Origin: Minisyncoccota bacterium
Lineage (GTDB): Bacteria; Patescibacteriota; Minisyncoccia; Phycocordibacterales; XYD1-FULL-46-19
Assembly (NCBI GenBank): GCA_041665625.1
Contig: JBAYIK010000001.1
Location: 68,587 to 132,586, forward strand
Direction of reading: 5' to 3'
DNA length: 64,000 nucleotides
Each line of letters opens with the position of its first letter. The first letter of the stretch is position 1. The notes under the pieces are model-generated. The model made no database searches. It worked only from the letters and a program-made list of their open reading frames with translations, and was not told where the DNA came from. The position numbers were made by a program, and so were the translations under genes. Below, piece after piece: positions 5,007 through 41,450 of the stretch.

Positions 5007-5987
5007 ATGCTACCAGCGCTGTCTTTTGCATTTATTACCGAACCCGGTTTTATGATCGTCTTTGTCATATTTTTTGTCTTGGCTTATTGCCTTGGTTACT
5101 ATTGGCAGAGTCGTCATAGTCGAGTCAGTCTTCTTATTGAAGAAGCCAATTTCAAAACTGACCAGATTGCCAAATTAGAAAAAGTTAACAAAACTTTAGA
5201 AGATACAAATCGACAACTTTACGCTAAGGAGCTTGAGCTAACGATGGCCAACACTCATTTGGCTTCGCTCGAACAGGCTAAATCAAAATTCATCTCAGTT
5301 ACCACTCATCAACTTCGCACACCGTTGGCGGCCGTTAAATGGACGCTTGATATGGCGGCTAAGGGTGACCTTGGCGTGGTAGATGAAGAACAAAAGAAAT
5401 TCTTAAACAAGGGTCTCGAGAGTATCAACCGGGTTATCTCAATTGTTAATGACTTACTGAAGGTTGACTCTATTAATACAGACAAAGATGATTACCAATT
5501 CAAAGCGCTGGACATTCTTAAGTTGCTCGAGGATGTCTTCTTCGAATTTAATAATCAAGCAATAAGTAAGAAAATAAGCCTGATCATCGAGAAGCCTGAT
5601 AAGGGTGTACCACTGGTCGAGGTTGATGATGATAAAATTCGGATGGTCTTAGAGAATCTCATTGATAACGCTATCAAATATACGCCAGATGGGGGCAAGG
5701 TCACTGTTCGTTTATCTGACTCTAAGCTCAATAGCGCTGTCCCGGCACTAGAAATTTCAGTTATTGATTCCGGTATTGGTATTTCACCCGAGGATTCTGG
5801 TAAAATCTTTCACAAGTTCTTCCGGGCCGCCAACGCGATCAAGAAGGAGCCTGATGGTTCAGGTCTGGGCCTCTTTATCGCCCATGACATTATCGAGAAG
5901 CATGGGGGAGTTGTTTGGTTTGAGAGCCATCCTGGCGACGGTACCACCTTTTTCTTCACTTTACCTTTACATCAGAAGAAAGTATAA
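5007..5987 (+). CDS. sensor histidine kinase (1 TM, coiled coil, HisKA + HATPase_c)
   Basis: H-box TTHQLRTPLAAV; N/G boxes DNAIKYTP...GSGLGL; N-terminal hydrophobic helix. Confidence 0.8.
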   Translation: MLPALSFAFITEPGFMIVFVIFFVLAYCLGYYWQSRHSRVSLLIEEANFKTDQIAKLEKVNKTLEDTNRQLYAKELELTMANTHLASLEQAKSKFISVTTHQLRTPLAAVKWTLDMAAKGDLGVVDEEQKKFLNKGLESINRVISIVNDLLKVDSINTDKDDYQFKALDILKLLEDVFFEFNNQAISKKISLIIEKPDKGVPLVEVDDDKIRMVLENLIDNAIKYTPDGGKVTVRLSDSKLNSAVPALEISVIDSGIGISPEDSGKIFHKFFRAANAIKKEPDGSGLGLFIAHDIIEKHGGVVWFESHPGDGTTFFFTLPLHQKKV

Positions 5988-6041
5988 TATTCTTATATAG
6001 CTTAAACTAAGCAATTAATTAGCAATTTTAATAACAATAAT

Positions 6042-6422
6042 ATGGCAGACGGTAAAAAGAAGATTTACATAGTTGAGGACGACGAATTTTTACGTTCACT
6101 CAACGCCAAGAAGCTTGAGGGCGAGGGTTATGAGGTCGTGGTGGCCGTCGATGGGCCAAGCGCTATTACTGGCATTCCCGAAGCGGCTCCTGACCTTGTT
6201 TTCTTAGACTTGCTCTTGCCTGGGGGCAAAGATGGCTTCGATGTTCTTACTTCAATTAAGGCTGATGAGAAAACCAAGAATATTCCGGTCATTGTCTTTT
6301 CTAACCTTGGTCAGACTGAGGATATTGAGAAAGCTCGCAAATTGGGGGCAATCGACTTCTTAGTTAAAGCCAATTTCACTCTAGACGACGTGGTTCTCAA
6401 AATTAAGGATATTCTAAAATAA
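6042..6422 (+). CDS. single-domain response regulator (REC only)
   Basis: CheY-like receiver: DD near N-terminus, phospho-Asp context LVFLDLLLPGGKDGFDVL, conserved K in FLVKA; 126 aa, no output domain. Confidence 0.85.
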   Translation: MADGKKKIYIVEDDEFLRSLNAKKLEGEGYEVVVAVDGPSAITGIPEAAPDLVFLDLLLPGGKDGFDVLTSIKADEKTKNIPVIVFSNLGQTEDIEKARKLGAIDFLVKANFTLDDVVLKIKDILK

Positions 6423-7400: not shown

Positions 7401-7408
7401 AAATTTTT

Positions 7409-8771
7409 ATGAAGAGAATTATTTTTACACTCATTTTCTTTGCCCTAATGTTTCCATTTGGACTGACCCACGTATTAGCCGAGGAACTCTTCCCTGTTAT
7501 TAGTTTCCATAGCGACGAAACTTTTGAAGCTGATAGTGAGGGAGGGGCAAGCATTTTTTACCCGAACCCAATGGTCGTTGATGATCTTGACGAAAGTTTT
7601 GGGGCCAATTGTTTGCCCGCTTCAGGAGATTTTTTCCCTTTGGGGACAACAACGGTTTATTGTCTTGCCACAGACAGTGAGGGGAATTCAGCGTCTTCAA
7701 CATCATTTAATATCATCGTTGTTGACACAAAAGCCCCAACCCTTATTTTGAATGGGGATAGCAGTATTGATATCACTGGAGGTGATACTTATACTGAGCT
7801 GGGGGCGACCGCCGCCGACATTGTCGATGGAGAGATTACGGCGAGAATTTCCATTACTGGCTCAGTTGATACGCTAAAGGCTGGTTCTTATACTCTTATT
7901 TATGATGTCTCTGACTTATCAGGAAACTCTTCTCAGACGACGAGAATCGTTAATGTCTCTGATGCCTTTGCCCCCGTTATTGAGCTAATTGGTGATAATC
8001 CTCAAATTATTACGCGGAAACAAGCTTATGTTGAACTAGGCGCCACGGCGACTGATGATGTTGATGGGGAGATCTCTATGGATGAAATTGAAAAAAAACG
8101 GTTCAGTTGACACTGCTGTTGCTGGGTCTTATTTTATGGATTATTCAGTTAAAGATTCTAACGGTAATGAGGGTTCTAAACGGCGCGAAATTATTGTTCA
8201 AGATCTTAATCCTGTTATCACCCTGCTTGGTAATTCGGTCATTGACCTGAGAGTTGGAGAAAATTACGTTGATCCTGGTACAACAGCTATTGATGATGTC
8301 GACGGAGATGTCACTGAGGGGGTCATTGTTGGGGGTTTGGTTGACACCGTTCTCGCGGGAACCTACGTTCTAACTTATAGCGTCACAGATGAAGGAGGGA
8401 ATATTTCTTTGCCCGTAACAAGAACTGTAAATGTAACACCTATCCCTGTTATTCCAGAAGTTTCTCCTCCAAGATCTGGTGGCGGAGGGGGAGTTTCTAC
8501 TGTGTTTTTGAAACCTGTGGCCACAACGACGGAGGGCCGAGTCTTGGGGGCTTCAACCTACCGTTTCCTTAAGGTTCTTAAGCTTGGGGCAAGAAGTGTG
8601 GGGGTTAAAGAATTGCAAGATAGATTAAGGACTGAGGGATTTTATAAAGGAGCAACAACTGGTTACTTTGGTAATCTAACTAGAGTGGCTCTAAAAGCTT
8701 ACCAAAAGAAAAATGGATTGGTGCCTTATGGAATATTAAACAAGGCCACAATGTTTGTCTTGAATAAATAA
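7409..8771 (+). CDS. cell-surface protein with signal peptide, HYR/Ig-like repeats and C-terminal peptidoglycan-binding domain; interrupted by a frameshift in an A8 tract (ORF-track pieces 7409..8110 and 8055..8771)
   Basis: Signal peptide MKRIIFTLIFFALMFPFGLTHVLA. Repeats with ATA.D.VDGEI...GSVDT..AGSY..Y.V.D..GN pattern run across the frame break. C-terminal PG_binding_1-like segment (LKLGARSVGVKELQDRLRTEGFYKGATTGYFGNLTRVALKAYQKKNGL). One fewer A at 8091-8098 restores a single ORF. Confidence 0.7.
8091..8098 (+). repeat. A8 homopolymer at frameshift site (candidate slipped-strand phase-variation tract)
   Basis: gaaAAAAAAAAcgg: frame 1 terminates at 8110, frame 2 continues the repeat unit (..KKNGSVDTAVAGSY..). 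Confidence 0.6.
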
Positions 8772-8793
8772 AAAATAGTTTGAACTAAAAAGC

Positions 8794-8840
8794 AATGACC
8801 GGTTTCGCTCTGCGAAACCGGTCATTAGTTTTTGTGTTTT
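8794..8840. terminator. bidirectional hairpin terminator between convergent genes
   Basis: aatgaccggtttcg-ctct-cgaaaccggtcatt perfect 14-bp stem followed by tttttgtgtttt; A-run on the other side. Confidence 0.7.
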
Positions 8841-9334
8841 CTCCACCTCCTTGTTAATCTCAATCTCCAAGCCAAGAGCTTACGAGTTAAATCTGGTAAT
8901 TGTTTGCGCATCACATCGATGTGCCAACAATTGAAACCGCCAGTGGTGATCAGCAGGAACACGTTAATGATGACGAGCAACCAGAAGGTTCTCCCTTGCA
9001 AGTTGGTTAGCCACCCCAAGCAGAAGACGTAGGACAAACTCTTGCTGATAGAGAAAGAGATTGTATCGAGCGTAAAGCGGTGTAGGCTATTCTCACGGTT
9101 TATGAGACCGGTGCGATAGAGCCCTTCTCGTCCTAACCAAAACGGCAGAGCTAGGATACCATCAACAACTAAGCTAACGATACGGAAGCCCCACATGTTT
9201 AACAACGATAACCCGCAATATAGCTCGAGAGGCCAGGCGACCACCGCCCGGGCAACTCCGACGATGTTCATCGAGAGCACCGCCGCTAGCCAACCTTCGA
9301 TCATGTTCTTGAACCAGGTGTTAAGTTTTAACAC
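8825..9334 (-). CDS. hypothetical integral membrane protein (4-5 TM)
   Basis: 169-aa ORF with several hydrophobic helices; no confident family assignment. Confidence 0.5.
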   Translation of the reverse strand: MLKLNTWFKNMIEGWLAAVLSMNIVGVARAVVAWPLELYCGLSLLNMWGFRIVSLVVDGILALPFWLGREGLYRTGLINRENSLHRFTLDTISFSISKSLSYVFCLGWLTNLQGRTFWLLVIINVFLLITTGGFNCWHIDVMRKQLPDLTRKLLAWRLRLTRRWRKHKN

Positions 9335-9666: not shown

Positions 9667-10662
9667 TTGATATTTATGAGTAAAAAATTATTAACCACCT
9701 TAAGCCTTTTTGCCTGTTCGTTTGCCTTTGTCCTTTCTGCTAGCGCTGTTGTTGGTCCTGAACCAACGGGGACGATTCTTATCAATAATGGGGCCACTTA
9801 TGTTAATAGTCGCAATGTGACGTTAAATCTTTCTACGACAGATGGATCTATTGTAAGGATGGAATTTTCCAATGGCGGATCTTATTCTACCCCAGAACCT
9901 TATGCCACAGCTACTTCCTGGACTTTATCAGCTGGGGCTGATGGCCTTAGAAATGTAAGAGTAAAATTTATTAATACATCTGGTGCTACTACAAGTACAG
10001 GGATTCTTGCTACCACGACTCTTGATACTACCGCTCCTGTTATCACCGCCCCGGTTGACCAAACCTTTGAGGCTACCGGAGCGACAACTACCCCAACTTT
10101 GACCTCGGCTACTTCGACTGATGTCACAAGTTCTACTACGGTAGATTATTCACCTAAGGAATTTTCTGTTGGTACGACAACTGTTACCTGGACTGCCACT
10201 GATGCCGCTGGTAATTTTGCTACCACAAGTTCCTTGGTAATTATCACCGAGAAAGTTGTGACGGTTCCTCCTGTTGTTACCCCAAGTCATCGTGGCGGGT
10301 CCTCTATTATGAAAGTTAATTTTGCTTTGGCCACAAGTACCGGTCAAGTTCTTGGTACTTCGACTGAGAAAGCAGTGAAAGAGAAGGTAATAAAGCGCAA
10401 GTTAACTCCAGAGGAGAAGAAGGCTCGCGTCTTCAAGAAAAGATTGAATCACATTAAGATTGCTATCTACGAGTTGAAGCACCCAGAGTCTAAGGTTCCT
10501 CCAATTGAGATTGTCTTTGGCACTAGTACTCAATCAAGCTCTGTCGGCACTGTCCCGCTTGTCCCTACGAATCTAACTGTTTCTGATTCAGGCGAAATTG
10601 TTGGCACCGGAACCAAGGCGACAACAACTCCAAAGAAGAAACCATTCTGGAAGTTGTGGTAG
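9667..10662 (+). CDS. secreted/surface protein with HYR-like domain and Thr-rich segments
   Basis: Signal peptide (LLTTLSLFACSFAFVLSASA), HYR-like TWTATDAAGN motif, Thr/Ser-rich low-complexity segments, basic C-terminus. Confidence 0.65.
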   Translation: MIFMSKKLLTTLSLFACSFAFVLSASAVVGPEPTGTILINNGATYVNSRNVTLNLSTTDGSIVRMEFSNGGSYSTPEPYATATSWTLSAGADGLRNVRVKFINTSGATTSTGILATTTLDTTAPVITAPVDQTFEATGATTTPTLTSATSTDVTSSTTVDYSPKEFSVGTTTVTWTATDAAGNFATTSSLVIITEKVVTVPPVVTPSHRGGSSIMKVNFALATSTGQVLGTSTEKAVKEKVIKRKLTPEEKKARVFKKRLNHIKIAIYELKHPESKVPPIEIVFGTSTQSSSVGTVPLVPTNLTVSDSGEIVGTGTKATTTPKKKPFWKLW

Positions 10663-10735: not shown

Positions 10736-10922
10736 AAAAGAAAGCGAGGAGTCCGCCATATGGGGAGTCCTCGCGAGGGGGAAAAGGGGGCTGGCACCGC
10801 GCCTTCAGTTGGGGAACTGTTGGTAAGTGGGGGGGGTAGACAGTCAGTGCACACGGTGCCAGCGGACCTTAGCCTACCATTAAGTTATTTATTTGTAAAG
10901 AGAGGGGGTGGAGCTTATTTTG

Positions 10923-10995
10923 TGGACCATAGCGGGATCGAACCGCTTACCTCTTCCATGCCATGGAAGCGCTCTACCAATTGAGCTAATGGCCC
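10923..10995 (-). tRNA. tRNA-Ala (anticodon GGC)
   Basis: Reverse complement folds as a cloverleaf: acceptor gggccat/atggtcc with G3:U70, D-arm gctc-aattggta-gagc, anticodon stem cttcc/ggaag with loop atGGCat, T-arm agcgg-ttcgatc-ccgct, discriminator A; CCA not encoded. Confidence 0.85.
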
Positions 10996-28971: not shown

Positions 28972-29025
28972 ATCCGGCTCTTCCATAACAACGTTTTGCG
29001 TTGCGGGGGGGCCGGATATTTTGTT
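28972..29025 (+). terminator. compound hairpin terminator closing GC-rich islet 3
   Basis: atccggc...gccggat outer stem with inner caacg-tttt-cgttg hairpin, followed by attttgtt. Confidence 0.5.
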
Positions 29026-41192: not shown

Positions 41193-41304
41193 TTATCTTC
41201 TAATAATAGACTTTTTGTGGCCGAAATTAAAGGGCTAAAAGTCTTCTTTATTTAAACTTAAATCTGTGGTAGTATTTAAAGACAATTTAATATTAGAAGT
41301 AGCC

Positions 41305-41450
41305 TAAACCAGTGAGTAATCGCTGGCATGGTGAATAAGCCCAGTCAAACGTAAAGAACCCAACATGTGGGGCCGTTTGACTGGCTGTATCGGGAAACCG
41401 ATGCAGAGGGCGCAAGCTCTCACTCACGTGTTGGGCTTTTTGGTTTCTAA
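41305..41450 (+). ncRNA. candidate structured RNA (unknown family) with GNRA hairpin and long-range stem ending in a T-tract
   Basis: GC-rich 145-nt island in an AT-rich intergenic region. ccagtcaaacg/cgtttgactgg 11-bp stem, atcgg-GAAA-ccgat tetraloop hairpin, cccaacatgtg pairing with cacgtgttggg followed by ctttttggttt. Confidence 0.3.

Follow-up and report, generated by a model that had tools for sequence, protein, structure and literature searches.

A frameshift at an A8 tract splits a lineage-specific surface-protein gene downstream of ddl in a Candidatus Paceibacterota genome

Downstream of ddl in the 64-kb stretch of DNA analysed here (hereafter the window), a run of eight A residues occupies positions 8091-8098. 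Direct reading of the sequence gives the run and its flanks as G-AAAAAAAA-C (8090-8099), in the local context GAAATTG-A8-CGGTTC. The run lies where two open reading frames meet, both of which are recorded as separate proteins (MFA6475848.1 and MFA6475849.1) of a Candidatus Paceibacterota MAG. Removal of one A generates a single ORF of 453 aa, with a gene span of 7409-8771, in which the run sits at codon 228 and is thus located in the middle of the gene. In its A7 form the tract reads GAA-AAA-AAC (E-K-N), and codon counts identify GAA and AAA as the commoner codons for Glu and Lys, respectively. The repaired reading crosses the junction as …DEIEKNGSVDTAVAGSY… / …GEISMDEIEKNGSVDTAVAGSY…, and the C-terminus of the upstream product as it stands is …DEIEKKRFS. 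The features of the gene are as follows:

7409-8110, plus strand: ORF1, encoding a truncated product of 233 aa (NCBI MFA6475848.1)
7409-7480, plus strand: putative Sec signal peptide, MKRIIFTLIFFALMFPFGLTHVLA followed by EE (MKR-hydrophobic-VLA/EE, judged by eye)
7544-7720, plus strand: HYR domain (PF02494), aa 46-104, Pfam
7748-7957, plus strand: Ig-like domain 1 (PF16403), aa 114-183, Pfam
7964-8204, plus strand: Ig-like domain 2 (PF16403), with the frameshift within its D-G-E...G-S-V-D-T loop
8082-8771, plus strand (alternative ATG at 8055): ORF2, in the +1 frame relative to ORF1 (NCBI MFA6475849.1)
8091-8098, plus strand: A8 homopolymer, the site of the frame break; one ORF is restored by A7, A10 or A4
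8217-8435, plus strand: Ig-like domain 3 (PF16403), Pfam
8601-8753, plus strand: PG_binding_1 (PF01471), peptidoglycan-binding anchor, Pfam

ORF1 contains the signal peptide, the HYR domain, the first Ig-like domain and the first half of the second; after the tract it adds three out-of-frame residues, R-F-S, and then terminates at TGA. The frame of ORF2 is open from 8040, offers ATG codons at 8055 and 8082, and stops at 8771, the recorded products being 229 and 238 aa. It encodes the second half of the second Ig-like domain, the third Ig-like domain, a Gly-rich linker with the sequence GRVLGAST, and PG_binding_1, and it lacks a signal peptide of its own. An A9 variant would yield a different truncated product of 280 aa. 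In this third frame (8091-8250) the N-terminal fragment would acquire a hydrophobic, transmembrane-like tail of 50 residues (TVQLTLLLLGLILWIIQ…), a feature that the shifted frame probably has by chance.

Pfam analysis of the repaired protein identified a single HYR domain (39.4 bits against a gathering cutoff of 21.7) and three stretches of PF16403, Bact_surface_Ig-like (DUF5011), with a combined score of 183 bits (E 7.7e-55, cutoff 27); scored separately, ORF1 and ORF2 give 85 and 103 bits, respectively, for this family. PG_binding_1 at aa 398-448 scores 50 bits in the repaired protein and 52 bits in ORF2 (cutoff 23). The frame break falls inside the second PF16403 domain. In an alignment of four repeats, three from the repaired protein and one from the protein at the same position in the relative L043, the junction preserves every one of the 18 invariant columns (…D-G…G-x-V-D-T…G…Y…D…N…R), with a loop that is one residue longer. 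The first-pass annotation, which proposed that an A8 frameshift splits a gene for a signal-peptide protein of about 450 aa ending in a peptidoglycan-binding domain, with a repeat unit that continues over the break, is therefore borne out in these respects, although the repeated unit is the PF16403 Ig-like domain and not, as it had suggested, HYR, which is present once. MFA6475848.1 and MFA6475849.1 should thus be annotated as the two halves of one frameshifted gene. From its domain content the intact gene would encode a secreted, peptidoglycan-anchored, adhesin-like surface protein.

The motif G[QR]VLG[AT]ST behind the Gly/Ser-rich linker recurs in secreted proteins that otherwise differ from one another. 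Its carriers are the split gene (8530-8555), the neighbouring gene at 9667-10662, the L043 protein (5093-6139) and the proteins P0014, P0023 and P0078; two of the proteins with this motif end in KKPFWK[LF]W. The motif may represent a processing or sorting signal specific to the Candidate Phyla Radiation (CPR).

The conserved upstream neighbour, Ddl, served as the anchor for reaching the corresponding loci of relatives. In the closest sister species (L038-L040), which display ~82% DNA identity to the window and a Ddl that is >90% identical in protein sequence, the alignment runs to 7409 and resumes at 8787. The 1.38-kb gene is precisely missing, and the ddl stop codon is followed directly by the terminator. 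Two features mark the position:

7410-8786, no strand assigned: lineage-specific gene-sized segment, missing in L038-L040
8794-8826, no strand assigned: bidirectional intrinsic terminator hairpin, common to the convergent gene at 8825-9334 and conserved in the sister species

Other relatives carry different genes at this position, or none. In L041 ddl is followed by a gene for a 554-aa MBG_3/Big_4 protein, in L042 by genes for Big_5 and Dockerin proteins, in L045 by unrelated sequence, and in the P0129 contigs by no gene. L043, L044 and L046 encode here a 348-aa protein with one PF16403 domain. The 348-aa protein of L043 and L046 is not an ortholog but a mosaic relative that is 42-45% identical in one domain to the repeats of the split gene. 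Compared between the window and L038, L041, L042, L043, L045 and L046, the interval from ddl to the terminator (7401-8793) has the appearance of a hotspot for the replacement of surface proteins. That close relatives have a differing Ig-like gene or none at this site indicates rapid turnover of cell-surface proteins. Horizontal transfer has left no mark that we could detect, in that gene and window are equal in GC content (0.430 and 0.432, respectively) and flanking direct repeats were not found around the gene. Judged by this comparison of loci, the split gene is an accessory gene at a position where surface proteins turn over fast.

Several other features of the window were noted. The middle of the gene at 9667-10662, from 9689 to 10331, has no aligned counterpart in the sister species. 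The intergenic region at 10742-10888 (9030-9165 in L038) shows nearly 100% conservation in the comparison with the sister species, where identity elsewhere is ~82%. It is predicted to fold into a 5' hairpin and a long hairpin, whose closing stem spans 10 bp (GCUGGCACCG/CGGUGCCAGC) and whose interior differs between the species, with a minimum free energy of -67 kcal/mol and z-scores of -4.2 (plus strand) and -4.4 (minus strand). The region matches no Rfam family and includes the only G8 run of the window (10829-10836), which is G6 in the sister species. It is a candidate for an unnamed structured RNA, predicted from folding and conservation, and adjoins a tRNA gene (10923-10995, minus strand) that is 100% identical to the sister copy (L038 9241-9314) but inverted relative to its flanks. 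At 41301-41421 (plus strand) lies a strong match to LOOT RNA (RF03000), which scores 87.6 bits where the Rfam gathering score is 46.4. A G7 run at 29005-29011, seemingly at the 5' end of a 739-aa ORF, was dismissed as a coding tract, as it is located in a terminator-like hairpin upstream of the likely start codon, ATG 29056, of a gene for a 7TM-GAF histidine kinase.

The A8 tract is present in all five of the assemblies that were compared, namely the NCBI MAG, the ENA/GEM MAG, a JGI contig and two Logan runs. The two MAG contigs differ in length (293,061 bp at NCBI and 292,983 bp at ENA/GEM) and therefore represent at least two MAG assemblies. The JGI contig (3300037810, Ga0376277_0032059) shows one SNP in 6.7 kb, at 5520 and thus outside the gene; Logan SRR6484324 equals the window in sequence, and Logan SRR18595301 is the same as the window over 7778-9140. 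Direct reading of these three contigs gave GAAATTG-A8-CGGTTC in each. Indeed, the exact 233-aa and 229/238-aa products are recorded at NCBI, ENA/GEM, JGI and Logan. With 0-1 SNP in 6.7 kb, the five assemblies sample a single near-clonal population, probably of one site, and they are compared at the level of the consensus, in which minority alleles are hidden. The sample behind JGI 3300037810 was taken in October 2017 from GW1, a groundwater well next to a landfill in Southern Ontario (10.1101/2024.05.30.596742). From accession ranges alone, SRR6484324 is probably a July 2016 deposit and SRR18595301 a 2017 GW1 deposit. If these dates hold, the consensus carried A8 at two time points separated by 15 months.

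It could be argued that the true sequence is A7 and that the eighth A is an artefact of sequencing or assembly, homopolymers being classic error sites and the data all deriving from one near-clonal population. Against this view, the concordant assemblies come from no fewer than three pipelines and from three or more read sets, and the 2017 site data are described as having passed through the read-trimming and assembly pipeline that was also applied to Illumina 2x150 libraries (10.1101/2024.05.30.596742). The 58 ORF-level genes of the 64-kb window occupy 89% of its length, and 23 of its 27 A7/T7 runs lie within intact ORFs; no homopolymer in the window other than A8 coincides with a frame break. 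Further split genes were sought as a sign of poor assembly, but the overlapping ORF pairs at 17.9 kb (DUF5663 and an unknown protein) and at 22.5-25 kb (an ABC-2 permease, an unknown protein and an ABC ATPase) proved to be distinct genes. Because the five assemblies agree and A8 is the sole homopolymer frame break, an error is very unlikely, and the possibility of a homopolymer sequencing error, which the first-pass annotation had allowed for, is effectively excluded.

The A7, A10 and A4 forms of the repaired protein had no exact match among ~15 billion public proteins, and searches of a protein-cluster database (5.8 billion clusters) with the repaired protein or with ORF1 returned no near-identical intact allele. 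In that database the best matches to the repaired protein were multi-repeat proteins that are 41-49% identical, and the best non-self match to ORF1 displayed 52% identity. Among 1.84 billion representatives, the sole protein more than 51% identical to ORF2 was ORF2 itself. In species-representative genomes and JGI metagenomes, identity did not exceed 37% over the repeat region, and short C-terminal peptidoglycan-binding segments reached up to 49% in the same contig scans. Thus, the cluster, representative, genome-contig and metagenome-contig searches found no ortholog, the closest match being 52% identical, and the state of the tract cannot be compared in orthologs, as had been proposed at the outset; the sister species, as described above, are without the gene.

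The first-pass annotation viewed the tract as a candidate phase-variable contingency locus. In a full form of this reading, slipped-strand mispairing would toggle the gene at high frequency between an ON state (A7), in which the adhesin-like protein is made and anchored, and an OFF state (A8); the switch would be kept by selection on host attachment, or on phage or host recognition. The structural element of the reading stands, as A8 is a coding tract in which a change of length shifts the frame and A7 restores the ORF. Eight residues also fall in the length range of proven poly-A/T switches, such as M. hominis vaa, which is ON at A8, OFF at A7 or A9 and switches at a rate of 1e-3 to 1e-4, and C. 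coli flhA, in which T8 changes to T7 at 3e-4 (PMC524362, PMC2831843). Furthermore, the gene belongs to the surface-protein class usually affected by contingency loci and occupies a hypervariable position, its A8 is the sole A/T run of at least 8 in the window, and ORF2 is undegraded, as the downstream part of an OFF-phase allele would also be. The evidence on polymorphism and on tract excess, however, is negative. Only the OFF length was seen in the five assemblies, probably of 2016 and 2017, and the ON allele is absent among the 15 billion proteins, both observations being at the consensus level. The tract is not near the gene's 5' end, where switch tracts are preferentially placed (PMC2831843), and it is built of the ordinary codons GAA and AAA plus AAC. 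Base composition predicts ~2.3 A and 1.6 T runs of at least 8 in the window, where one is observed; A8 is therefore not statistically unusual, the tract being no longer than composition would lead one to expect. Across 47 kb of the relatives' loci there are eight A8/T8 runs, five of which fall in frame within uvrA, response-regulator and histidine-kinase genes that are intact (L041 241-248, L046 124-131, L038 2324-2331, and L042 1518-1525 and 2424-2431), while the relatives' surface genes at the ddl position contain no run of 8 or more. As five of the eight runs leave genes intact and the surface genes have none, A8 is neither intolerable in this clade nor a marker of contingency genes; A7/A8 runs are common in the clade's intact housekeeping genes, runs of 8 being stable there in the relatives and tolerated in essential genes, and runs of 8 are absent from the genes at the same position. 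In addition, we found no ortholog that shows conservation of the tract. Given a useful intact protein and reversion at the rates of the known switches, one would expect to see the ON allele somewhere. We thus consider phase variation at this tract unlikely. By the test that the first-pass annotation itself had set out, in which reads of a single length that keeps the frameshift, together with split orthologs, mark a fixed pseudogene, the consensus-level evidence points to a fixed frameshift.

Two further readings would retain a function for the A8 allele. In one, slippage by RNA polymerase or +1 ribosomal frameshifting on A AAA AAA CGG would supply a useful fraction of full-length protein. Runs of A are indeed slippery for RNA polymerase and for tRNA-Lys, among Arg codons CGG, which follows the run, is used least (at 4.8 per 1000 it is low in frequency without being rare), and endosymbiont genes are rescued at long poly(A) runs (reviewed in PMC5009743). 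The cases documented in that review, however, are at long poly(A) runs, whereas here there are 8 A. Restoration of the frame would require the loss of one nucleotide or the gain of two, and genome-wide data show that slippage at A/T runs produces chiefly single-base insertions, deletions being rare (PMC5574713). The commonest slip would thus generate an A9 transcript encoding the 280-aa truncated product, in which the frame is not restored. None of the stimulators of programmed +1 frameshifting or slippage (a rare or stop codon, a Shine-Dalgarno (SD)-like element at suitable spacing, RNA structure, or a run of at least 9) is found at the tract. The predicted folds 5' of, 3' of and across the run are no better than those of shuffled sequences (z -0.87, +0.09 and -0.75, respectively), the nearest SD-like element, GGGGAG, ends 19 nt before the tract, which is not a prfB-like spacing, and no ortholog displays conservation of the site. 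Some full-length protein may plausibly leak through at a low level without any programming, but the sequence gives no indication of a programmed recoding mechanism, and rescue at the level of expression appears improbable. The other reading holds that each ORF encodes a working protein of its own, with an N-terminal fragment that is released and a C-terminal one translated from ATG 8082. It finds some support in the separate annotation of both ORFs by NCBI and JGI, and in the GGGGAG motif 10 nt upstream of this ATG. The break, however, halves an Ig-like beta-sandwich, no homologue with such a split was found, and, as ORF2 lacks a signal peptide, its peptidoglycan-binding domain would be stranded in the cytoplasm. 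An internal promoter for ORF2 was also sought; the sole consensus-like site (8107-8135) lies downstream of the start of ORF2 and is not meaningful. That the split gene yields two functional proteins is thus very improbable indeed.

We regard a recent A7 to A8 frameshift, fixed in the population and located in a dispensable, lineage-specific gene for a peptidoglycan-anchored Ig-like surface protein, as the probable explanation of the locus. The frame is disrupted in the DNA itself, and relatives live without the gene, which would make it dispensable. In this model the intact gene would be co-transcribed downstream of ddl, and its product exported through the signal peptide and held at the wall by the C-terminal PG_binding_1, so that the HYR and three Ig-like domains, as the domain content suggests, would be displayed outwards. 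Replication slippage at an ordinary mutation-prone run would then have inserted one A. In the resulting A8 state translation would end three codons past the tract, and the product would be, at most, a secreted 233-aa fragment that includes half an Ig-like domain and has no anchor. The 3' two-thirds of the information would be silent or, at best, expressed without a signal peptide, and the insertion would have become fixed in the sampled near-clonal groundwater population. The undegraded downstream frame (103 bits for PF16403 and 52 bits for PG_binding_1) indicates that the event is recent.

As it stands, therefore, the locus presents a routine knock-out of a surface-protein gene at a homopolymer. 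The variable position 3' of ddl is the more informative result, as the hotspot suggests quick turnover of surface proteins in ultra-small, probably host-attached bacteria. The stronger proposition, that a change between A7 and A8 serves to turn on and off a peptidoglycan-anchored Ig-like adhesin of a Paceibacterota (CPR) episymbiont at a surface-replacement position 3' of ddl, is doubtful. If true, homopolymer phase variation would be described here for the first time in the Candidate Phyla Radiation; classical contingency-locus biology would then reach the CPR, and the tract would provide a simple in situ marker of surface variation. In the literature searched, no paper coupling Patescibacteria with phase-variable genes was found, and the nearest CPR precedent was a hypervariable 9-mer repeat gene in Gracilibacterium (PMC6851277).

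The domain organization of the intact protein resembles that of the CPR/Patescibacteria proteins P0014, P0023 and P0078, which contain HYR, PF16403 repeats and PG_binding_1 in the same order and share its C-terminal module of a Gly-rich linker, G[RQ]VLGAST and PG_binding_1. In contrast to the split gene none of the three is frameshifted, and, with 40-43% identity and other repeat numbers, none is an ortholog. With respect to the frame break, the site is similar to the poly(A) genes of Buchnera and Blochmannia and to Citrobacter rodentium tssM, in which a poly-A run is also found at a frame break (PMC5009743, PMC4256274). In the endosymbionts, however, the runs are long and corrected transcripts have been demonstrated (PMC5009743), whereas the tract described here consists of 8 A, would require a change of -1 or +2 and is known from DNA alone. 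The locus also resembles homopolymer-frameshift truncation alleles and pseudogenes such as the A6 to A7 change in L. monocytogenes inlA and the microevolution of homopolymeric tracts in Bordetella pertussis, in which a surface protein is truncated, and so loses its wall anchor, through a single-base indel in a short A run, with the allele fixed in a lineage (PMC2831843, PMC1891110). Those examples come from cultured pathogens with many strains, while the present allele comes from one near-clonal environmental CPR population in which the gene has no orthologs that we could find. Similar to M. hominis vaa, the locus has a short poly-A run (7-9 A) in the coding region of a surface adhesin-type gene, the bacterium is host-dependent and has a small genome, and the gain or loss of one A shifts the frame; the vaa locus, too, varies between strains (PMC524362). 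In vaa, however, the tract is at the 5' end and both lengths, as well as a rate of 1e-3 to 1e-4, have been observed, while here the tract is mid-gene and a single length is seen. By analogy, M. hominis vaa and truncation alleles such as that of L. monocytogenes inlA appear to be the closest known counterparts of this locus in mechanism and appearance.
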